Of a stretch of 64,000 nt of DNA, positions 3,990 through 61,720 are shown in pieces; the first letter of the stretch is position 1, and the number at the start of each line of letters is the position of its first letter. The DNA is taken from NCBI GenBank assembly GCA_964016885.1, contig OZ024742.1, forward strand, positions 36,022,001-36,086,000, in the 5' to 3' direction. The stretch is from Eledone cirrhosa. Lineage: Eukaryota. The position numbers and the translations under genes were made by a program. The notes beneath the pieces are model-generated. The model searched no databases. It worked only from the letters and a program-made list of their open reading frames with translations, and was not told the origin of the DNA.

Positions 3990-4262
3990 TAACGCTTTTA
4001 GTGGATTGCTTCGTGGCATGGAGTTACGAACCTTTACGTTCTGAGTTCAAATCCCGCCGAGGTTAACCTTGCCTTTCATCATTACAGAGTCGATGAAATA
4101 AAGTACCAGTAATGCCCTGGGGTTCGATTTAATCGACTTTCTCCTTCCCCAAAAAATTGTTGGCTTTGTGCCTAATCCCGCCGAGGTTAATTTTGAATTT
4201 CATCCTTACGGGGTCGAAATAAAATACCAGTAATACACTGGGATAATTGCCGACAATTATTA
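3990..4262 (+). mobile_element. tRNA-derived SINE with Nin/Deu-like core, plus a partial second copy
   Basis: B-box-like GAGTTCAAATCC followed by gccgaggttaacYttgcctttcatcc...gtcgataaaataaagtaccag; about 10 copies in the window. Confidence 0.8.
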
Positions 4263-5790: not shown

Positions 5791-5977
5791 CCGCGGGATG
5801 CAGCCCCAACACCACCACCGCGCCCTAGGCCCAGGGCCCATCACCCTCTCTTCTTACCCCTACTTTCCCATACAGCCAAATCTGCCCTGCTTTACTACCT
5901 CGCCATTTCTGAGGTTATTAATACAATTGTAAATAAAAGTTCTAAAAAAATATGTATATATATAATTGTATAGATTA

Positions 5978-6388
5978 TTGTGGATTGGCAGAATTGGTAG
6001 AGGGTCTGACGTCATGCTTTCCAGCATAATTACCTCCCTTTACGATCTGAGTTCAAATCCCACAAGGTTAACTTTGCCTTTCATCCTTATGAGGTCGATA
6101 AAATAAAGTACCAGTAATGTACTGGGTAATTGCTGGCCTTGTGCCTAAAGTAGAAACAATTAGTATTATCATTGGTGGTGAATTGACAGTATCGGTAGAG
6201 CGTCAGACACCATGCTTTGCAGAATAGTATTCCGGCCCTTTACGGTCTGAGTTCAAATCCCGCTGAAGTTAACTTTGCCTTTCATCCATACGAGGTCGAT
6301 AAAATAAAGTACCAGTAATGTACTGAGGTCGATTTAATCGACTTTCCCCTCCCCCCAAATTACTGGCCTTGTGCCTATACGAGAAATC
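5978..6388 (+). mobile_element. Two tandem tRNA-derived SINEs (~5978-6160, ~6172-6388)
   Basis: A-box-like tggcagaattgg, B-box gagttcaaatcc, shared core and gccttgtgccta tail. Confidence 0.85.
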
Positions 6389-6424
6389 CTTATATATGGG
6401 ATAATATACATATATATACTTTTA

Positions 6425-6497
<73 letters not shown>

Positions 6498-6504
<7 letters not shown>

Positions 6505-7199
6505 GAGAGGTATAGAGATTGTTTTAGCAAGAAGCTAACGGCATTCTATAACATATATGCGACTATAACGTCAAGATGGGAAAAGTAGTTAACGAAAGAT
6601 TTAGGAAAAATAACTCAAACTCATCTCAAAAGAGAATCAGGATATAAATTCATCCACAGAATTTAGTAAAATCCAGGGAAAAATCTATAGACCTTTAACT
6701 CATGATAAAATAAAGTTTGAAACACTTATCCTTCAATTTGGAATAACATCAAATGCTCTGTATAGTCTTAAAAGACTATTTCATGAAAACTTTCATTGGA
6801 GATGGTCACGGTTGGATTTCATTCATCAGCAGAGCTCAACAGAAACCAGGGCTCTCACAGTAATATAATCCGAAAAAGGGAATTCTAAAACTGGCTAGTT
6901 TGCCTTTATGTGTAATTGTGAAAAAGCACATGAGGAAAAAACGGGGCTAGTGACGTCAGGATGGAAGTGAATGTTTATTTACAAGAAATAGCAGTCAAAT
7001 ACATTCTGAAAAAAACTCTACAAAAGGAGTTCAGCAAAATAGCAATAATTATCACAGTTTTATGAAAAAAACCGGGATTAGTCACAGATAGTTTAAGCAC
7101 TCTAGGAAAAGAATCCGAGTATAAATATAAATGAGAGGTATAGAGATTGTTTTAGCAAGAAGCTAACGGCATTCTATAACATATATGCGACTATAACGT

Positions 7200-7202
<3 letters not shown>
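6498..7202 (-). mobile_element. Terminally redundant non-coding HHR element (family E; 628-nt unit plus 77-nt repeat)
   Basis: 6498-6574 is identical to 7126-7202; (TA)n on both sides; internal HHR; partial second copy at 22800-23025. Confidence 0.8.
6755..6835 (-). ncRNA. Complete type I hammerhead ribozyme (family E)
   Basis: GCUCUG CUGAUGA AUGAAA...UUUCAU GAAA UAGUCU-UUUA-AGACUA UA CAGAGC: 6-bp stem I, 6-bp stem II, full stem III, AUA triplet. Confidence 0.9.
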
Positions 7203-7251
<49 letters not shown>

Positions 7252-7298
7252 AGAGTAAAACAAAGAAGCCTTTAATACATCAAAAGTTTTTATTAGCC

Positions 7299-7333
7299 GT
7301 CAATGTTTCGTCCTATTAAGGACTCATCAGGGC
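7299..7333 (-). ncRNA. Minimal hammerhead motif (family F), partly decayed
   Basis: GCC CUGAUGA GUCCU-UAAU-AGGAC GAAA CA UU GAC; core and stem II are canonical, stems I and III are imperfect. Confidence 0.6.
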
Positions 7334-9137: not shown

Positions 9138-9194
<57 letters not shown>

Positions 9195-9236
9195 GATATT
9201 AAATAAATGGAAACTATATTTATGAAATCATATTTA

Positions 9237-9293
9237 TTCTATTATATATATTTCAAGAGTACCAAAACTTTGGTACGCTCTCATCAGATAAAA
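9237..9293 (-). ncRNA. Minimal type I hammerhead ribozyme (family G)
   Basis: UUUUAU CUGAUGA GAG-C-GUACCAAA..UUUGGUAC-U-CUU GAAA UAUAUA UA AUAGAA. Confidence 0.75.
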
Positions 9294-9396
9294 TACAAAG
9301 AGTGTTTTATAAATTTTGACAGAGCCAAGGAAGAAAATTCAACTGATAAGGTATGATTTCATTGGCTATGTCAACATTTATAAAACACTCTTTGTA

Positions 9397-9455
9397 TTTT
9401 ATCTGATGAGAGCGTACCAAAGTTTTTTGGTACCCTTGAAATATATATAATAAAA
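9397..9455 (+). ncRNA. Minimal type I hammerhead ribozyme (family G)
   Basis: TTTTAT CTGATGA GAGCGTACCAAA..TTTGGTACCCTT GAAA TATATA TA ATAAAA; palindromic ATATATAT stem III. Confidence 0.8.
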
Positions 9456-9647
9456 CAAATATGGTTTTATAAATATAGTTTCTATTTAATTAATATCATT
9501 GAATATTTACTCCAGAATACTGTCGAGTGCTCTGAATCAGTTATAAACATTTATATTTGTTGTATTTCCAACAAATTAAATATCCCTTCTACTTATATAT
9601 ATATATCTTAGATGTATGTATATTATCCCATATATAACGATAATAAT

Positions 9648-9895: not shown

Positions 9896-12800
9896 CCGGA
9901 GTGTGTGTTTCACCGACATACAGTCCGGAGTGTGTGTTTCACCGACACACAGTCCGGAGTGTGTGTTTCACCGACACACAGTCCGGAGTGTGTGTTTCAC
10001 CGACATACAGTCCGGAGTGTGTGTTTAACCGACATACAGTCCGGAGTGTGTGTTTCACCGACATACAGTCCGGAGTGTGTGTTTAACCGACATACAGTCC
10101 GGAGTGTGTGTTTAACCGACATACAGTCCGGAGTGTGTGTTTCACCGACATACAGTCCGGAGTGTGTGTTTCACCGACATACAGTCCGGAGTGTGTGTTT
10201 CACCGACACACAGTCCGGAGTGTGTGTTTCACCGACATACAGTCCGGAGTGTGTGTTTCACCGACATACAGTCCGGAGTGTGTGTTTAACCGACATACAG
10301 TCCGGAGTGTGTGTTTCACCGACACACAGTCCGGAGTGTGTGTTTCACCGACATACAGTCCGGAGTGTGTGTTTCACCGACATACAGTCCGGAGTGTGTG
10401 TTTCACCGACATACAGTCCGGAGTGTGTATTTCACCGACATACAGTCCGGAGTGTGTGTTTCACCGACACACAGTCCGGAGTGTGTGTTTCACCGACACA
10501 TAGTCCGGAGTGTGTGTTTCACCGACACATAGTCCGGAGTGTGTGTTTCACCGACATACAGTCCGGAGTGTGTGTTTCACCGACATACAGTCCGGAGTGT
10601 GTGTTTCACCGACACACAGTCCGGAGTGTGTGTTTCACCGACACACAGTCCGGAGTGTGTGTTTCACCGACACACACTCCGGAGTGTGTGTTTCACCGAC
10701 ACATAGTCCGGAGTGTGTGTTTCACCGACATACAGTCCGGAGTGTGTGTTTCACCGACACACAGTCCGGAGTGTGTGTTTCACCGACACACAGTCCGGAG
10801 TGTGTGTTTCACCGACACACAGTCCGGAGTGTGTGTTTCACCGACACACAGTCCGGAGTGTGTGTTTCACCGACACACACTCCGGAGTGTGTGTTTCACC
10901 GACATACAGTCCGGAGTGTGTGTTTCACCGACACACAGTCCGGAGTGTGTGTTTCACCGACATACAGTCCGGAGTGTGTGTTTCACCGACACACAGTCCG
11001 GAGTGTGTGTTTCACCGACATACAGTCCGGAGTGTGTGTTTCACCGACACACAGTCCGGAGTGTGTGTTTCACCGACACACAGTCCGGAGTGTGTGTTTC
11101 ACCGACACACAGTCCGGAGTGTGTGTTTCACCGACATACAGTCCGGAGTGTGTGTTTCACCGACACACAGTCCGGAGTGTGTGTTTCACCGACATACAGT
11201 CCGGAGTGTGTGTTTCACCGACACACAGTCCGGAGTGTGTGTTTCACCGACATACAGTCCGGAGTGTGTGTTTCACCGACACACAGTCCGGAGTGTGTGT
11301 TTCACCGGCACACAGTCCGGAGTGTGTGTTTCACCGACATACAGTCCGGAGTGTGTGTTTCACCGACACACACTCCGGAGTGTGTGTTTCACCGACACAC
11401 AGTCCGGAGTGTGTGTTTCACCGACACACAGTCCGGAGTGTGTGTTTCACCGACACACAGTCCGGAGTGTGTATTTCACCGACATACAGTCCGGAGTGTG
11501 TGTTTCACCGACATACAGTCCGGAGTGTGTGTTTCACCGACACACACTCCGGAGTGTGTGCTTCACCGACATACAGTCCGGAGTGTGTGTTTCACCGACA
11601 CACAGTCCGGAGTGTGTGTTTCACCGACACACAGTCCGGAGTGTGTATTTCACCGACACACAGTCCGGAGTGTGTGTTTCACCAACACACAGTCCGGAGT
11701 GTGTGTTTCACCGACACACAGTCCGGAGTGTGTTTCACCGACACACAGTCCGGAGTGTGTTTCACCGACACACAGTCCGGAGTGTGTGTTTCACCGACAC
11801 ACAGTCCGGAGTGTGTGTTTCACCGACATACAGTCCGGAGTGTGTGTTTCACCGACATACAGTCCGGAGTGTGTGTTTCACCGACATACAGTCCGGAGTG
11901 TGTGTTTCACCGACACACAGTCCGGAGTGTGTGTTTCACCGACACACAGTCCGGAGTGTGTGTTTCACCGACATACAGTCCGGAGTGTGTGTTTCACCGA
12001 CATACAGTCCGGAGTGTGTATTTCACCGACACACAGTCCGGAGTGTGTGTTTCACCAACACACAGTCCGGAGTGTGTATTTCACCGACACACAGTCCGGA
12101 GTGTGTTTCACCGACACACAGTCCGGAGTGTGTTTCACCGACACACAGTCCGGAGTGTGTGTTTCACCGACACACAGTCCGGAGTGTGTGTTTCACCGAC
12201 ATACAGTCCGGAGTGTGTGTTTCACCGACATACAGTCCGGAGTGTGTGTTTCACCGACATACAGTCCGGAGTGTGTGTTTCACCGACACACAGTCCGGAG
12301 TGTGTGTTTCACCGACACACAGTCCGGAGTGTGTGTTTCACCGACATACAGTCCGGAGTGTGTGTTTCACCGACATACAGTCCGGAGTGTGTATTTCACC
12401 GACACACAGTCCGGAGTGTGTGTTTCACCAACACACAGTCCGGAGTGTGTATTTCACCGACACACAGTCCGGAGTGTGTTTCACCGACACACAGTCCGGA
12501 GTGTGTTTCACCGACACACAGTCCGGAGTGTGTGTTTCACCGACACACAGTCCGGAGTGTGTGTTTCACCGACATACAGTCCGGAGTGTGTGTTTCACCG
12601 ACATACAGTCCGGAGTGTGTGTTTCACCGACATACAGTCCGGAGTGTGTGTTTCACCGACACACAGTCCGGAGTGTGTGTTTCACCGACACACAGTCCGG
12701 AGTGTGTGTTTCACCGACATACAGTCCGGAGTGTGTGTTTCACCGACATACAGTCCGGAGTGTGTATTTCACCGACACACAGTCCGGAGTGTGTGTTTCA

Positions 12801-13040
12801 CCAACACACAGTCCGGAGTGTGTATTTCACCGACACACAGTCCGGAGTGTGTTTCACCGACACACAGTCCGGAGTGTGTTTCACCGACACACAGTCCGGA
12901 GTGTGTGTTTCACCGACACACAGTCCGGAGTGTGTGTTTCACCGACATACAGTCCGGAGTGTGTGTTTCACCGACATACAGTCCGGAGTGTGTGTTTCAC
13001 CGACATACAGTCCGGAGTGTGTGTTTCACCGACACACAGT
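9896..13040. repeat. 29-bp tandem satellite (CCGGAGTGTGTGTTTCACCGACAYACAGT), ~109 units, with a 373-bp higher-order repeat distally
   Basis: Near-identical units with no spacers; the CCAAC variant recurs at 11682, 12055, 12428 and 12801. Confidence 0.97.
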
Positions 13041-13169
13041 CACTGTTTAATTATTGTGAATGCTATTCTGGTCCCGGAACCCGGATTACGGTTGGAATTA
13101 CTTCAGCATTTAATCATCGTTTTCAGATTTGCTGGCGGTGGGAGAGCTGCTGAGATAGTGCTAGCTGAG

Positions 13170-13966: not shown

Positions 13967-14034
<68 letters not shown>

Positions 14035-14101
14035 CAAGGTTTAGCAAATAAGAAAAAGTTTTAAAATAAATTTTAAAAAGTTCACTCTACCTACTATATT
14101 T

Positions 14102-14185
14102 ACTCTTACCGCGAGGTTTCAAGTCTCAAAATAAATGGATAATCCATGCGGAAATTCATTGAGAAGAAGACTTTCGTCAGAGGGT
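14102..14185 (-). ncRNA. Type I hammerhead ribozyme (family H)
   Basis: ACCCU CUGACGA AAGUCUU...GAGACUU GAAA CC-UCGC-GG UA AGAGU (one stem I mismatch). Confidence 0.8.
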
Positions 14186-14310
14186 TCTTCTCACTCGGAG
14201 AATATAAAATTCCCGAGTTCAAATCACGAACTGGCGCCATACAGAACTATTCCCGGATGAGAGTGTATGATGAAGAAACAATTTTGTCTAGTGCGGTCCG
14301 AGTGAGAAGA

Positions 14311-14394
14311 ACCCTCTGACGAAAGTTTTCTTCTCAATGGATTTCCGCATGGATTATCCATTTATTTTGAGACTTGAAACCTCGCGGTAAGGGT
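14311..14394 (+). ncRNA. Type I hammerhead ribozyme (family H)
   Basis: ACCCT CTGACGA AAGTTTT...GAGACTT GAAA CC-TCGC-GG TA AGGGT; GUA triplet. Confidence 0.88.
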
Positions 14395-14579
14395 AATTAC
14401 AGCAGGTACAGTGAACTTTTTAAAATTTATTTTAAAACTTTTTCTTATTTGCTAAACATTGATTATATATGTTCTGGCTCGTTAATTTATTAACCTGCCA
14501 TAGAACAACAATGGCATACGGTTGGATAATACATGTGTCCCTATATAACATATATATACATATATATATGTATATACAT

Positions 14580-16178: not shown

Positions 16179-16455
16179 ATGTCACTTACTTCTTTTTTCA
16201 GCAAAAGAAGGGAGATAAGCTGACATATCTGTTTCACACTGTTGGTATAAGAATCCAGCCTCTATAATTTTCGGCAAAGGTCGGCGAGTGCTAGTCTCTG
16301 ATGAACACCAACAGTGTGAAACAGATCTGTCAGCTTATCTCCCTACCTTTGCTGAAAAAAGAAGTAAGTGACATCGTCACCACTTTAAAATAATAGCGCA
16401 AGGTCTTCAAAATGTTTTTAATTAAACATACAGTATATTGCTAAATATACTATAC
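16179..16455. mobile_element. Inverted-repeat HHR element, family I (arms 16179-16246 and 16307-16374, plus tail)
   Basis: Arms of ~68 bp; a diverged relative lies at ~52835-53030. Confidence 0.8.
16293..16335 (+). ncRNA. Type I hammerhead ribozyme (family I)
   Basis: AGTCT CTGATGA ACAC-CAACA-GTGT GAAA CAGATCTG TC AGCT; GUC triplet; stem I has a bulge. Confidence 0.8.
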
Positions 16456-18051: not shown

Positions 18052-18117
<66 letters not shown>

Positions 18118-18127
18118 GAGATATATG
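17263..18127. mobile_element. Large fold-back element (core 17498-17862) whose symmetry extends through flanking microsatellites
   Basis: Arms of ~150 bp, an internal perfect hairpin tgatgtttgctctaatc/gattagagcaaacatca, and catatatctcattat (~17336) mirrored by ataatgagatatatg (~18113). Confidence 0.75.
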
Positions 18128-18168
18128 TTTACAAACTGTGAGACTTTACGTCCTATAGAATGGAAATA

Positions 18169-18247
18169 GCTTTCTGAAGAGTGGATCTTTCCATTGGAAG
18201 TCGTTTGGATTCCCAATCTTTTGAGAGGCGAAACCGTCGGTAAAAGC
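18169..18247 (+). ncRNA. Type I hammerhead ribozyme (family L, copy 1)
   Basis: GCTTT CTGAAGA GTG...GGC GAAA CC-GTC-GG TA AAAGC; stem II base weakened relative to copy 2. Confidence 0.75.
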
Positions 18248-18646
18248 ATTTTGGACAGGTAAATATTTAAATCGTATTTTAATTTATTGAAAAGATTGTT
18301 TAATGTTTACTTGTTCCGCTCATCTCAATTTTATAGTTCTGGTATCTCAAATTAATACCATTGAACAACAAATGTATTATAGACACCCTATATATTTCCG
18401 TGGGTACTTAGTACCTGTGGAGATATTAATCTCATTTTATGTATGTTCTTCCATATGTGTAGAGAAAAAAGCGTTGTACCTAACTGCTATTTTTAGTAGC
18501 GTGACAAACAACATGTCTATAACATTCCCGCTTTTACTAACGACCAGTTTATGTGTTGGTCATTTTAACGACCTGACCTTACGCTAGCTGGCAGTAGGCG
18601 ATATATTTACTTACTGTGAGACTTTACGTCCTATAGAATGGAAATA

Positions 18647-18725
18647 GCTTTCTGAAGAGCCGATCTTTCCATTGGAAGTCCTTTGGATTTCCAATCTTTT
18701 GAGAGGCGAAACCGTCGGTAAAAGC
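18647..18725 (+). ncRNA. Type I hammerhead ribozyme (family L, copy 2)
   Basis: GCTTT CTGAAGA GCC...GGC GAAA CC-GTC-GG TA AAAGC; loop II holds small hairpins; predicted cut after 18720. Confidence 0.88.
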
Positions 18726-18804
18726 ATTTTGGATAGGTAAATATTTAAATCGTATTTTAATTTATTTAAAAGATTGTTTAATATTTACTTGTCCCGCTCA
18801 TCTC

Positions 18805-18887
<83 letters not shown>

Positions 18888-20111: not shown

Positions 20112-20637
20112 CTTGGAACTCTTTTAACCATCTTTTGATCTTATATTATATATATATATATACTAGCAGTGGTACCCGGCGTTGCACGGGATAAGGTATT
20201 TTGGAACGCGGGCCACCAACAGACCTAATCGGGGAAAAACTGCATGCCTCGACAATATGTAAAGAAAATAAACCGAATACTCTGTTGGCTGGATAATCTA
20301 AGATTTTCCTTGATGAAGCAGGGAAAAGGCAGGTTTTCACCTAATGCTGGCCCTAGGGGATCAAGAGAATGAATTTTCGGGAAAATCGGCTAGACGTAAA
20401 CGCCTCAAAAAAGCCCTATAAAGCTAAAAGAAATGAAGTTTTTTACCTAATGCGGGCCGGGCCCTAGGCCATAAAAAAAAGTTGGATTTTCTTTGCTCAC
20501 GGTATGAAGAAGAGACTGACTAATACATAGTTATAATTTCAAGGAAATCGGTTTGACGTAACGCTTCAAAAAACCCCTAAAAAGCTGGAAAAAGGCAGTT
20601 TTCCACCTAATGCGGGCCCTAGGAGATAAAAAATTAT

Positions 20638-21623
20638 AATTATACCGACCCGGATGCTCTCCAGGTGGCATTTTCGAGGCATCAATTACCACATTAAAAT
20701 TGGCTGTGATATCTATCTGCTTCCAAGGGGCATACTTGAAGCTAATGACATAGCTGATTTTTGTGTGCAGAATGTCTTGCAATTTCCTTATAAGCTCGAC
20801 ATTGGTACCGGGTGAAATGGAGTTTCTCATGGCTGCCTGCTCGTTGACATTCCCAACAAAGTACAGCTGAAGAAATTGAGGTTCTTGATTGGCGGCAGGT
20901 TGGAGGGATCCGATTCTATGGTACACCTGATATTGAACCTTAAATGTGGGCATAAATCCGCCTTCCTTGACAATGTTCGCCCCGAAAGATGTCATTTGGA
21001 AAGCACAGTTATACCTCCGGATGTAAGTCAGGAAATGCCGTGACTCCGCAGTACTGCCTGAATATAGGAGCTTCAACGGTTGTGGTGGATCCTCCAGGGG
21101 ACGTAATTTTACTTTTCCATTTGCACAACACAAGCCAGGTGTTTCTCCGGGCCACTTTTTTGCATTGCAGAAAGAGCATGTCTTTGACATACTCCCAATT
21201 CGCATGTCTGGATGGCCACTGTAATCAAAGTCAGGGTTGTACTCGAATGCTTTCAAGGACCATCGGCCTTGAAATACCCTGTCCAAAGGCCCTTCGTTGA
21301 GCATTACATTGTAGTCGAATGTCTCGTTCTTGCGAGGCCTGTGTAGCTCGCGCAGCAGCAGTATTCGTTGCATCCGTACTCCGACGTCTTTTACTCTGGT
21401 CGTCCGTCTCGGCTGCTCGTGCAACAGAAGTTGATGCGGCATTAGCGGTTCGGCGAATGGTTCGTTGATTGTCTGTTTCAAGTGCTCTTCTGGTGGCAGC
21501 ACGTTTAGCATCTTGCGACCTTCGAATAGCAGATTCCACTGACGATTCGTTTGCCCGCCCTGTTCTTGTTGTTGCTGCTTTCGCAGTTTTTCGGCCAACG
21601 GAGTATCTCTTCCTTCGAGGCAT
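20638..21623 (-). pseudogene. Helitron Rep/helicase N-terminal part, frameshifted near 21270 and truncated before the HUH and helicase domains
   Basis: MPRRKR plus 23-aa ES/ET...R..R repeats (STPR-like), then CSFCNAKKWPGETPGLCCANGKV, FLTYIRRYNCAFQMTSFGA, TFKVQYQVYHRIGSL, PQFLQLYF, GEHPGRYN. Confidence 0.88.
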
Positions 21624-22114
21624 GACCTAAAAGAAGTACAAAGTACAATGAAACTCACTGGTAGAGTAAGGAGTAAACTCGTCAGTGAATTAAAAACCGA
21701 TGCATGTGATTTCCGAATGGGGTATGGATAGGGAGAGGGGTAACAGTAAGAGCAGCGGTTGGAATGAGTGTAAGTTAGTGAATATGTTGTCAGTGACAAA
21801 AATGGCGTAAATGAAACGCCACACGCAAGTACACACACACACTGAAGCACGCAAACGCAGAAACGCACGCAAACTCACACACACACATGTTAATAGATTT
21901 AACTCATAATGGAACCCTGCGCGAACACACACACACACACACACGCACACGCACACATACACACGCGCGCACACACACACATGCACACGTGTTAATTACT
22001 TATAGCTTTCCTTCCACTCTTCCAGCGTCTCTCTCTCTCTCCCGCTATCCCCCTCTTTTAGTATGTCTGTTTCTTTCATTCTCACTCTTTCTCTTTATAA
22101 CCCACTCACATTAA

Positions 22115-22247: not shown

Positions 22248-22799
22248 TTCCATCAGACCATGAGAGAGTTTATAATCACTCACGCACACATACACACTCA
22301 CGCATGCAAACGCACACAAACTCACACACACACGCACGTACACACACACGCAATAGTTATTCCACTTTTATGTATCTTTGACGCATACAACTCTCAAAAG
22401 ACGGCGTCTGTCACTCTCTCGCTCCCGCTTATCCCCTCTTTTAGTCTGTCTGTTTCTTTCATTCTCACTCTTTCTCTCTGTAAATCGTTCACATTTCTCC
22501 CCTATATCGAAAAACGCTGTGACGAATAGGGAGAAGCAGGAGGAGGAGTAGAGAGCCACTTCTTCACTTCGCCTCTCCGTTTCTTTCTCTCCCCTCTCAC
22601 TCCCTCATTATATACAGACATTAGCCACTTCACTAATTCGATCCCCAGGTCACAATAATTTGAAATTTGTTTTTGCTCAAAACACTTCCGGGGCCATACG
22701 GGTTACATGTGTAGAGTTTGAAAAAAAACGGTTGGGTACTTCTCGAGTTTTAGGGAAACAGACACACAGACATCCTCTGTTTTATATATATATATATAT

Positions 22800-23020
22800 G
22801 AGTATTTTAAACTTTATTTTATCATGAGTTAAGGCTCCATTGATTTTTCCCTGGATTTCATTAAATTCTGTTGGATAAATCTATATCCTGATTTTTTTGA
22901 ATTGAGTTTGAATTATTTTTCCCACATCTTACGTTAACTATTTTCCCATTTTGACGCTATAGTCACTTATATATTATGGAATACTGTTGGCTTCTTGCTG
23001 CAATAATTTCTATACTTTTC

Positions 23021-23025
<5 letters not shown>
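22800..23025 (+). mobile_element. Truncated, diverged copy of family E (no HHR)
   Basis: Reverse complement aligns to ~6499-6728; (TA)n on both sides. Confidence 0.75.
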
Positions 23026-23070
<45 letters not shown>

Positions 23071-23138: not shown

Positions 23139-23192
23139 GATGTGTATCTTATATATACATATATATTTAATTATATATATATATATATATAT

Positions 23193-23743
23193 ATAAATGG
23201 AATAGAATGAAACGAAATTTCATTTCTCACTCTTAGTAGGGCACTTACTTAAATGCAAGTATGTATGTATACGTACATACATATATGTATACAGACGTAC
23301 AGTAGTATGTATATATATATACATACATGCACACATATATATATGCACGTATCGGTTCACCGAACATTTATTATAATGCTCGGTTTGTTCGTTTGTAAAC
23401 AAACAGCCCGAATTACGCCGTACAGTGTTTAGGCAACCACGTCACCCTTTTGTTCAACACTGACACAGGAACGATGTACTAGTTTCAAGCTTATTAGCTA
23501 TCGTCAGCATCGCATACCTTCCTGCCAGATGGTTGAACGTCTGAAAGTATATACCTTCCTTATGCATATTAACGGCTGAGCAGCCCAATTTGCATATCGA
23601 GTGAGTTCAGTCGGCCGGACACACCGAAAACGATAAATGGAATAGAATGAAACGAAATTTCATTTCTCACTATTAGTACGGCAATTACTTAAATGTAAGT
23701 ATGTATGTATGTATACGTACATACATATATGTATACAGACGTA
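23193..23743 (-). mobile_element. Terminally redundant non-coding HHR element (440-nt unit plus ~107-nt repeat)
   Basis: 23193-23299 matches 23633-23743; single internal HHR; (TA)n on the left. Confidence 0.8.
23472..23512 (-). ncRNA. Minimal type I hammerhead ribozyme
   Basis: CGAUG CUGACGA U-AGCU-AAUA-AGCU-U GAAA CUAG UA CAUCG; palindromic ACUAGU; GUA triplet. Confidence 0.82.
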
Positions 23744-50286: not shown

Positions 50287-50599
50287 TTGAGTATTACAAT
50301 TAAAAAGAATTAATAAGAATTAAAAACTAAAAATTACAGACTTTAAATTAAGCGTTGAGGTAAGTTTTTTTCATCTTTCTTGTTGAGAAGGAGACTGGAA
50401 AATGAACTCTTGTATATAGAGAGAAAGGTGTGTAGTCAAATATATATAAATATATATATTTGGTGTGGGATGCTTAAAGCGTCCGTATGCCGTAAGCCGT
50501 TTGAGCACTCGACGCTTTTACAGAGCAGAGTATAATATCACATAAGAAACGGAGAATCAATGGTGCGACGAATTATGGAAACTCTGCTTCGAGAGATTG

Positions 50600-50696
50600 A
50601 GACGTATCTGAAGAACTTGCGATTTCAGAGTCAGGTTCGATCATCGCATCGATCGTATCTTGAGCTGGTCGCCAGGGAAACGATTGTAATATGTCT
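50600..50696 (+). ncRNA. Type I hammerhead ribozyme inside a short inverted-repeat element (50542-50739)
   Basis: AGACGTAT CTGAAGA ACTTGCGA...TCGCCAGG GAAA CGATTG TA ATATGTCT; 8-bp stem I. Confidence 0.75.
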
Positions 50697-50809
50697 AATA
50701 TATTCTAATTCGTCGCACAACTGATTCTCCGTTTCTTATATATATATATATATAAATATAAAATAAAGTTAAATAAAAGTCAAATGATTAAAATTTAGCT
50801 TCGTTTATT

Positions 50810-55699: not shown

Positions 55700-55797
55700 T
55701 TAGTTCTAATGTGCACAACTAATTGTCGTGTGCATCCCTCAGATAACACATATGTGACCCATGCGGCCCTTGGGGGATCCTCAATTTGACATGCCTG
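55700..55797. mobile_element. hAT/Charlie-like transposon end
   Basis: Homologous to 54050-54148. Confidence 0.55.
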
Positions 55798-55799
55798 CT

Positions 55800-55975
55800 T
55801 TATAGCATATAGTTACGGTCCTTTATGTTCTGAGGTCAAATCCCGCCGAGGTTAACTTTGCCTTTCATCCTTACGGGGTCGATAAAATAAAGTACCAGTC
55901 ATGCACTGGGGTTCGATTTAATCGACTTTCCCCTCCCCCAAAACATTTCTGGCTTGTGCCTAAATCAGAAACCAT
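55800..55975 (+). mobile_element. tRNA-derived SINE, 5'-truncated
   Basis: Same core and tail as 6172-6388. Confidence 0.8.
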
Positions 55976-56069
55976 TATAGTATAGGAGGTGTTGTCACAA
56001 ATTGTCACACTGAATTTCCCTGTCATCTATTTTACTGATACACGTGTCAGTGAAATACTTAGTACAAGA

Positions 56070-59396: not shown

Positions 59397-59454
<58 letters not shown>

Positions 59455-59457
<3 letters not shown>

Positions 59458-59638
59458 TGTTTCTACTTTAGGCACAAGGCCAGCAATTACCCAGTTCATT
59501 ACTGGTACTTTATTTTATCAATCCCGTAAGGATGAAAGGCAAAGTCAACCTCGGCGGGATTTGAACTCAGATCGTAAAGGGACGTAACTATGCTGGAAAG
59601 CATGGCGTCCGACCCTCTACCGATACTGCCAATCCACC

Positions 59639-59641
<3 letters not shown>
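59455..59641 (-). mobile_element. Full-length tRNA-derived SINE
   Basis: Minus strand starts ggcggtggattggcagtatcgg, then gagttcaaatcc, core and tail. Confidence 0.88.
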
Positions 59642-61139: not shown

Positions 61140-61720
61140 TAATTGTTTCTACTTTTGACACAAGGTACTTTATTTTATCGACCCCGTAAGAATGAAAAGC
61201 AAAGTTAACCTCGGCGGGATTTGAACTCAGAAAGGCAAGGGCCGTAACTCTATGCGTCAAAGCATAGCGTCCGACCCTCTACCGACACTGCCAATCCACC
61301 GCCTATGACATGTAATAATTGTTTCTACTTTTGGCACAAGGCCAGCAATTATCCCAGTGCATTACTGGTACTTAATTTTATCGACCCCGTAAGGATGAAA
61401 GGCAAAGTTAACCTCGGCGAGATTTGAACTCAGTCCGTAAAGGGATGTTACTCTGTGCTTCAAAGCATGGCGTCCGACCCTCTATGTAATAATATCCTGA
61501 AATGTGCGTAGAAATTTGAATATTGTTAGTGTTGATTTTCAGTATCGGTAGAGGGTTGGACGCCTTGCTTTCCAGCATAGTTACGCCCCTTTACGAACTG
61601 AGTTCAAATCCCGCCGAGGTTAACTTTGCCTTTCTCATCCTTACGTGGTCGATAAAATAAAGTACCAGTAATGTGCTGGGATAATTGCTGGCCTTGTGCC
61701 AAAAGTAGAAACAATTATTA
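61140..61720. mobile_element. Three SINEs: ~61140-61303 (-), ~61315-61483 (-), ~61540-61720 (+)
   Basis: Same family as 59455-59641. Confidence 0.88.

Follow-up and report, generated by a model that had tools for sequence, protein, structure and literature searches.

The window analyzed here is a 64,000-nt stretch of the Eledone cirrhosa genome (contig OZ024742.1, positions 36,022,001 to 36,086,000), and it contains a 705-base insert whose features are read on the minus strand (Table 1). The ends of the insert are direct repeats, identical at 77/77 positions with an offset of 628 nt, and pure (TA)n lies on both flanks; on these two points the initial annotation was correct. The exact direct match reaches 78 nt once positions 6497/7125 are counted. 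The insert corresponds to 1.12 head-to-tail copies of a 628-nt unit and carries one hammerhead motif, which is located 260 nt upstream of the 3′ junction in the minus-strand sense. The arrangement is a partial tandem (pseudo-LTR), i.e., a 77-nt copy of the 3′ end precedes a full unit. The unit closes head-to-tail, so that the sequence read upstream from the ribozyme meets its own 3′ end after 364 nt; its G+C content is 33%, and its longest frame does not exceed 58 aa when the ribozyme strand is read as a circle. A second copy lies on the opposite strand, with 84% identity over 233 columns, between (TA)n runs at 22783-22799 and 23024-23067. It includes the sequence of the 77-nt repeat, which is therefore part of the element; the initial annotation was right that no target-site duplication is involved. 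The 3′ end position of this second copy is identical to that of the 705-base insert. Both copies are flanked on either side by (TA)n, and a target duplication is not discernible. In addition, two sequences are possible promoter elements: the palindrome TGACGTCA at 6951-6958, some 120 nt upstream of the hammerhead, and a TATA-like segment where the units join (7119-7131).

Table 1. Features of the 628-nt element and of related loci in the window (positions are those of the window).
Feature	Position	Strand	Remarks
(TA)n at 3′ junction (RNA sense minus)	6404-6501		also downstream of SINE-like repeat at about 6172-6401
77-nt repeat, copy 1 (3′ end of unit)	6498-6574	-	exact repeat match
Long predicted hairpin between ribozyme and 3′ end	6603-6732	-	most pair probabilities >0.9
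Type I hammerhead motif	6755-6835	-	core, stems and triplet drawn from sequence
Stem I	6835-6830 with 6760-6755	-	6 Watson-Crick pairs
Core CUGAUGA	6829-6823	-	sequence motif
Stem II	6822-6817 with 6788-6783	-	6 pairs, 28-nt loop
GAAA	6782-6779	-	sequence motif
Stem III	between GAAA and AUA triplet	-	7 pairs
AUA triplet	6763-6761	-	predicted cleavage 3′ of 6761
Non-coding segment upstream of ribozyme	6836-7125	-	related contigs diverge upstream of about 6840 (loose ends 6839-6841)
AAUAAA in upstream segment	6979-6974	-	sequence motif
77-nt repeat, copy 2	7126-7202	-	pseudo-LTR-like partial tandem; copied beyond one unit, then cut short
(TA)n at 5′ junction	7202-7248		target-site duplication indiscernible
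Second copy, 5′-truncated	22798-23027	+	about 230 nt, 84% identical; same 3′ end, stops before ribozyme
Partial tandem, unit 478, redundancy 213 (94%)	18123-18813	+	unrelated; (TA)n at 18056-18115 and 18808-18887
Partial tandem, unit 440, redundancy 111 (93%)	23193-23743	-	unrelated; 3′ end on (TA)n 23172-23195
Inverted pair with hammerheads	9183-9509		cores 9287/9403; next to (TA)n
Inverted pair with hammerheads	14026-14470		cores 14180/14316; next to (TA)n
Inverted pair with hammerhead	50531-50750		core 50608; next to (TA)n

All three stems of a hammerhead can be drawn at this locus. The earlier description of the ribozyme as fully paired is overstated in one respect, because the predicted folds favour a local hairpin over stem II. 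In the minimum-energy fold of the isolated motif (-19.0 kcal/mol) stems I and III were retained and stem II was replaced by that hairpin, with the hammerhead fold 1.5 kcal/mol above it (-17.5 kcal/mol). When the 628-nt unit was folded as a circle, stem III formed with pair probabilities of 0.85-1.0, whereas stems I and II had 0.04 and 0.0. The circular fold was only moderately better than those of shuffled sequences (z = -2.8, 1 of 40 equally good, 58% paired), and the opposite strand scored equally well (z = -3.5). The pair adjacent to the core is A-U in this copy, versus a conserved G-C. No hammerhead match was found with Rfam at the gathering score in the window, and at E≤5 the region 6400-7300 gave only chance matches, none of them to a hammerhead. 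A strict hammerhead descriptor gave 9 matches in the 35,188 non-array bases, whereas 100 Markov controls averaged 0.01, hence the motif is not a chance match.

The element, or part of it, was present in 10 of 14 listed public runs; no RNA run was among those containing it, which speaks neither for nor against expression. Its copies were tallied by aligning the reads or contigs of four public DNA runs (X1, X2, X6 and X12). Element-matching records amounted to 36 contigs in X1, 24 contigs in X6, 1025 contigs in X2 (209 with 99% identity or more, 286 with 95-99%, 355 with 90-95% and 175 below 90%) and 3355 reads among the 12.5 million of X12; depth along the unit was left aside, since it mixes divergence with contig breakage. 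Diverged copies with the same 3′ end, beginning TATATAAATG, were found in X1 and X6, and truncated copies entered (TA)n near 6716 (2 contigs, X2) and near 6583 (1 contig, X6). An X6 contig that covers 6790-7143 with 7 substitutions spans the head-to-tail junction, which is thus family sequence. As the repeat and the junction recur in other copies, both a target-site duplication and an assembly artefact were rejected as the origin of the repeat. The joint 7125→6498 was crossed by one X1 contig, which extends 147 nt past it, and by two X12 raw reads with two different starts, which we infer to reach up to 29 nt beyond the 77-nt repeat (estimated from the 150-nt read length and a 44-nt short side). 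Because the second window copy lacks the terminal repetition, and one contig and two reads exceed 77 nt, the redundancy length of the family appears variable rather than fixed at 77 nt as LTRs would have it, although the evidence above 77 nt is thin, i.e., two raw reads and a contig whose assembler may have walked a repeat longer than its word size. The initial annotation had anticipated a fixed 3′ end, a variable redundancy and multimers: the 3′ end is indeed fixed and the redundancy seemingly variable, but a two-ribozyme dimer of the 628-nt family was found neither in the window nor in the X1, X2, X6 and X12 records, the longest wrap (147 nt) falling short of a second ribozyme. Furthermore, several contigs had the ribozyme and all of the 3′ sequence in common and left the alignment at about 6840, which suggests that the 3′ portion of the family is a conserved module to which different upstream sequences can be joined.

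With respect to age, the absence of differences in 2 × 77 nt bounds the divergence at 1.9% per copy (95%), and the contig closest to this copy shows 5 substitutions and 3 gaps in 340 nt outside the repeat. A recent insertion is plausible; the identical repeats lend weak support to the young insertion suggested earlier, but the suggestion was too strong in view of that bound and of the differences elsewhere. The 77-nt stretch is highly variable across the family, and position 6540 differs in 264 of 297 X12 reads. Several other signals were discarded. The X12 end peaks at 6881/6884, 6735/6738 and 6660 were set aside as library cuts at EcoRI/AATT sites, and the peak at 6613 adjoins, in our reading, an AATT created by a family variant. 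A 68-nt skip in one X6 contig was not taken as an intron, GT-AG ends being absent.

When the variants in these alignments were placed on the predicted structures, the hammerhead core carried no substitution (among the 40 of 157 variant sites listed), and the ribozyme indels among the listed variants were mostly in loops (6769, 6770, 6815), with one at 6822. In the long hairpin the pair was kept by 6 of the 8 listed variants at paired sites, and by 6/6 of the transitions (P ~0.04; 40 of 157 sites listed). This hairpin is a candidate recognition structure for the helper enzyme. Covariation support from two sequences (8 one-sided and 0 two-sided changes) was not counted, because the structure had been derived from those same two sequences, and the alignment of four unrelated hammerheads gave no information. 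A repetition of AUGAAA in loop II was rejected as an insertion mark: T6796 is nearly private to this copy, with G in 949 of 1060 X12 reads. A possible change of the stem I pair 6830/6760 from G-C to A-U was likewise put aside; its two sides come from separate X12 loose-end consensus lines, one of them at 0.49 agreement, so that their linkage is not established.

The 705-base insert is most likely a non-autonomous passenger of Penelope-like elements (PLEs), of the class termed solo non-LTR retrozymes, and it probably entered (TA)n through target-primed reverse transcription. The latter is indicated by the fixed 3′ end and the variably truncated 5′ ends (in the ribozyme sense), which are seen in the two window copies and in the loose ends of the public contigs. 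The initial annotation had counted attachment to a PLE ORF against its reading; kinship with PLEs is instead what most probably accounts for the architecture. The traits described for PLEs include non-autonomous forms, a bias towards microsatellites, 5′ truncation, partial tandems and inverted copies lying next to each other (PMC8557442), and animal retrozymes have been argued to be non-autonomous PLE derivatives, with solo monomers and units of 51-972 bp (bioRxiv 10.64898/2026.07.22.740005). One PLE trait, an optional tail of 30-40 bp with two start sites, was looked for, and both window copies gave one common end place, with few ends to compare. No reverse transcriptase or GIY-YIG domain (Pfam) was detected among the 118 frames of the window, and pattern scans for the family in metagenome contigs and viral contigs gave 0 matches. 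We found no literature on this 628-nt family or on cephalopod retrozymes, in a search that did not extend to Repbase and Dfam. The kind of element is already in print, and the 628-nt family adds another member.

The metazoan non-LTR retrozymes described so far (PMC7229834; bioRxiv 10.64898/2026.07.22.740005) are, like this element, non-coding and low in G+C (below 45%), with a single type I hammerhead per unit and head-to-tail closure, and movement by PLEs through circular RNA has been proposed for them, the circle being a proposal here as well. The 628-nt unit is about twice the typical size (150-300 bp), within the range of 51-972 bp, and it differs in its long stem III (7 bp), its long loop II (28 nt) and the A-U pair that closes the core. 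An 'active' retrozyme is defined there by two ribozyme-bearing units, and this locus does not qualify because it has 1.12 units with one ribozyme. The relevant passages of the retrozyme papers do not mention a fixed internal start or (TA)n targeting, both of which are proposed here. Of nine retrozyme dimers predicted in Xenopus, eight remained uncleaved in vitro (bioRxiv 10.64898/2026.07.22.740005). MRC1 of Chlamydomonas and the pseudo-LTR partial tandems of PLEs (PMC8557442) share with this element a pseudo-LTR that mimics LTRs, 5′ truncation, insertion into microsatellites and an indiscernible target duplication. Naiad and most Chlamys elements are described as lacking canonical hammerheads (PMC8557442), whereas the 628-nt family itself carries a hammerhead motif, which by analogy points to a hammerhead-bearing helper such as Neptune, for which a microsatellite bias is noted (PMC8557442). 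In Poseidon of Anolis carolinensis (PMC11167929), as in the present proposal, reverse transcription begins within the RNA, 3′ of the hammerhead and at AT-rich DNA, and an intact cleavage site is copied through. However, Poseidon is autonomous, and its start lies within the ORF (111-118 nt in) and lacks homology to the target, whereas the 628-nt unit has no ORF and would start 260 nt from the cleavage site, with a 5-nt match to the target.

In the proposed pathway, a master locus bearing at least two ribozymes would be transcribed on the minus strand, the hammerheads would excise 628-nt monomers, and a host ligase would close them into circles. The GIY-YIG endonuclease of a PLE would nick (TA)n, and the DNA 3′ end would pair through about 5 nt with a UA-rich RNA site 260 nt downstream of the cleavage site, which would serve as a fixed internal start. 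Reverse transcription would start at about 6497-6501, where the internal sequence and the (TA)n target have the 5 nt ATATA in common. The enzyme would read through the intact cleavage junction, often stopping early, as in the 230-nt copy; in the 705-base insert it would have gone once round plus 77 nt, and the 5′ end would finally be joined to (TA)n. The 705-base copy itself is likely a dead end, since with a single ribozyme it would be unable to release unit-length RNA by double cleavage.

The initial annotation had attributed the more-than-unit insert to a circular or multimeric RNA. Since the insert holds the cleavage junction uncut and away from its ends, the template had either never been cleaved or been ligated again, but a circle and a linear multimer are not separated by this observation because both predict the same insert. 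The published views differ, i.e., circles (PMC4209133, PMC7229834) versus uncleaved RNA in vitro (PMC11167929). Reverse transcription of a ligated circle over more than one unit was proposed for PLEs in 2014 (PMC4209133) and for retrozymes later (PMC7229834; also the 2020 review PMC7761336), and retrozyme circles have been demonstrated in coral, mussel and axolotl (PMC7229834). We prefer the circle as template, with confidence that is evenly poised. The 77/77 identity, in a stretch that is very variable in the family, points to it. The main rival, somewhat less probable and still to be taken seriously, accepts the same class of element but needs no circle: a master locus with tandem units would be read through into a linear RNA, which would serve as template without being cleaved. 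The circle is disfavoured by the sole PLE reconstituted in vitro, that of the anole, which starts internally downstream of the hammerhead and mainly used unprocessed RNA, and whose ribozyme mutants inserted normally (PMC11167929). The predicted misfolding of the hammerhead within the full 628-nt unit also suits the linear tandem, and the redundancies of the other two direct units of the window are 94% and 93% identical, as the units of an array (or age) would give. On the other hand, identity at 77/77 positions in a variable stretch points to a single template molecule or a very homogeneous array, and the 7-bp stem III should, by prediction, permit cleavage of monomers, which would shorten the life of a tandem transcript.

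Two further readings concern the nature of the unit. It is rather unlikely that an autonomous PLE left the insert behind as a remnant of its terminal pseudo-LTR region, in which case there would be no separate non-autonomous family. Most PLE insertions are 5′-truncated stubs (PMC8557442; bioRxiv 10.64898/2026.07.22.740005), and some of the contigs that share the ribozyme and the 3′ part and diverge upstream of 6840 may be the pseudo-LTRs of coding elements, but the upstream sequence of this copy loops onto its own 3′ end rather than entering an ORF, and coding traces are absent in every frame. Improbable, too, is that the unit is a linear RNA with its true 5′ end near 7125, the 77 nt being a second, truncated round of copying (by a template jump or a re-insertion). 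In favour of this, the TA-rich junction (TATAAATATAAA) might be what remains of a target, and nicking by PLEs at AT-rich sites within their own repeats is known (PMC11167929). However, diverged contigs and reads of X1, X6 and X12 cross the junction, which marks it as an inherited, fixed family sequence; a pile-up of ends at 7125 is absent among the loose ends listed (212 more exist), and the listed X12 end peaks fall on EcoRI and AATT sites. A miniature LTR element (of the TRIM or LTR-retrozyme type) with 77-nt LTRs is scarcely tenable, in spite of the identical direct terminal repeats and a TG...CA pair a few bases inside the repeat ends, as it is already contradicted by a repeat that the second copy lacks and that three records extend beyond, by flanks beside TG and CA that are mismatched as a target duplication (4 bp in LTR retrozymes), and by a type I ribozyme outside the repeat, unlike the type III hammerhead within the LTR of LTR retrozymes (bioRxiv 10.64898/2026.07.22.740005).

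The 628-nt element is not alone in the window. A relaxed scan detected 12 hammerhead motifs, which belong to several unrelated families, and a thirteenth (core 18174) was spotted by eye. A (TA)5+ run was present within 290 nt downstream of 12/12 scan-detected hammerheads versus a baseline of 0.39, with a cut-off chosen after seeing the data and about 9 of the loci independent. The unrelated 478-nt partial tandem carries a type I hammerhead motif in each copy of its redundancy (cores 18174 and 18652; circular fold z = -6.7); because two ribozyme motifs are present, this locus could release unit-length RNA, and it is better suited to a test of the circle than the 628-nt locus. The 440-nt unit has a compact internal hammerhead (core 23507; circular fold z = -6.3), and at its 5′ end it continues into sequence of the family seen at 14388-14564, of which it is a further copy there. 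Three inverted pairs with hammerheads lie next to (TA)n (Table 1), and PLE insertions with an adjacent inverted copy have been described (PMC8557442).

We tentatively propose a genome with several unrelated, dispersed retrozyme families (628, 478 and 440 nt within 18 kb), copied by PLEs from circular RNA with a (TA)n-primed fixed start. If so, each insert would be a record of one pass round a single RNA circle, the identity of the repeats and the spread of their lengths would be the first genomic read-out for circles over linear tandems, and the copies would map the start site and the hairpin recognised in trans by the PLE enzyme. The circle model is already in print and is unlikely to surprise specialists, and the value of the locus is as test material: with dispersed inserts of just over one unit, a mapped start and neighbouring families, circle and tandem become distinguishable by counting copies. 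The 628-nt element itself is well-formed and ordinary for this genome.

Other features of the window were also noted. Single type I hammerhead motifs have their cores at 16298 (+), 20049 (+), 50859 (-) and 59778 (-); in these four, stem III is short and mostly palindromic (the dimer type), and (TA)n lies 43-287 nt downstream. A 447-aa frame (20534-21874, minus strand) is Helitron helicase-like by features in residues 150-420 (score 0.96), with no Pfam match, and the frame 21234-21626 gave a weak STPR match. A 25-kb array (24696-49378) consists of GGT-rich 6-, 30- and 48-nt units, with a plus strand that is almost C-free and stop-free frames of thousands of codons, and a 29-nt minisatellite (9896-13041) comprises 109 copies with 96% matches and is partly self-complementary. 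One SINE-like family, presumably similar to the octopus SINEs, is present in many copies (4007-4250, 5975-6401, 55796-55987, 59450-59641 and 61164-61720), one of which stops where the (TA)n run around the 628-nt element begins.
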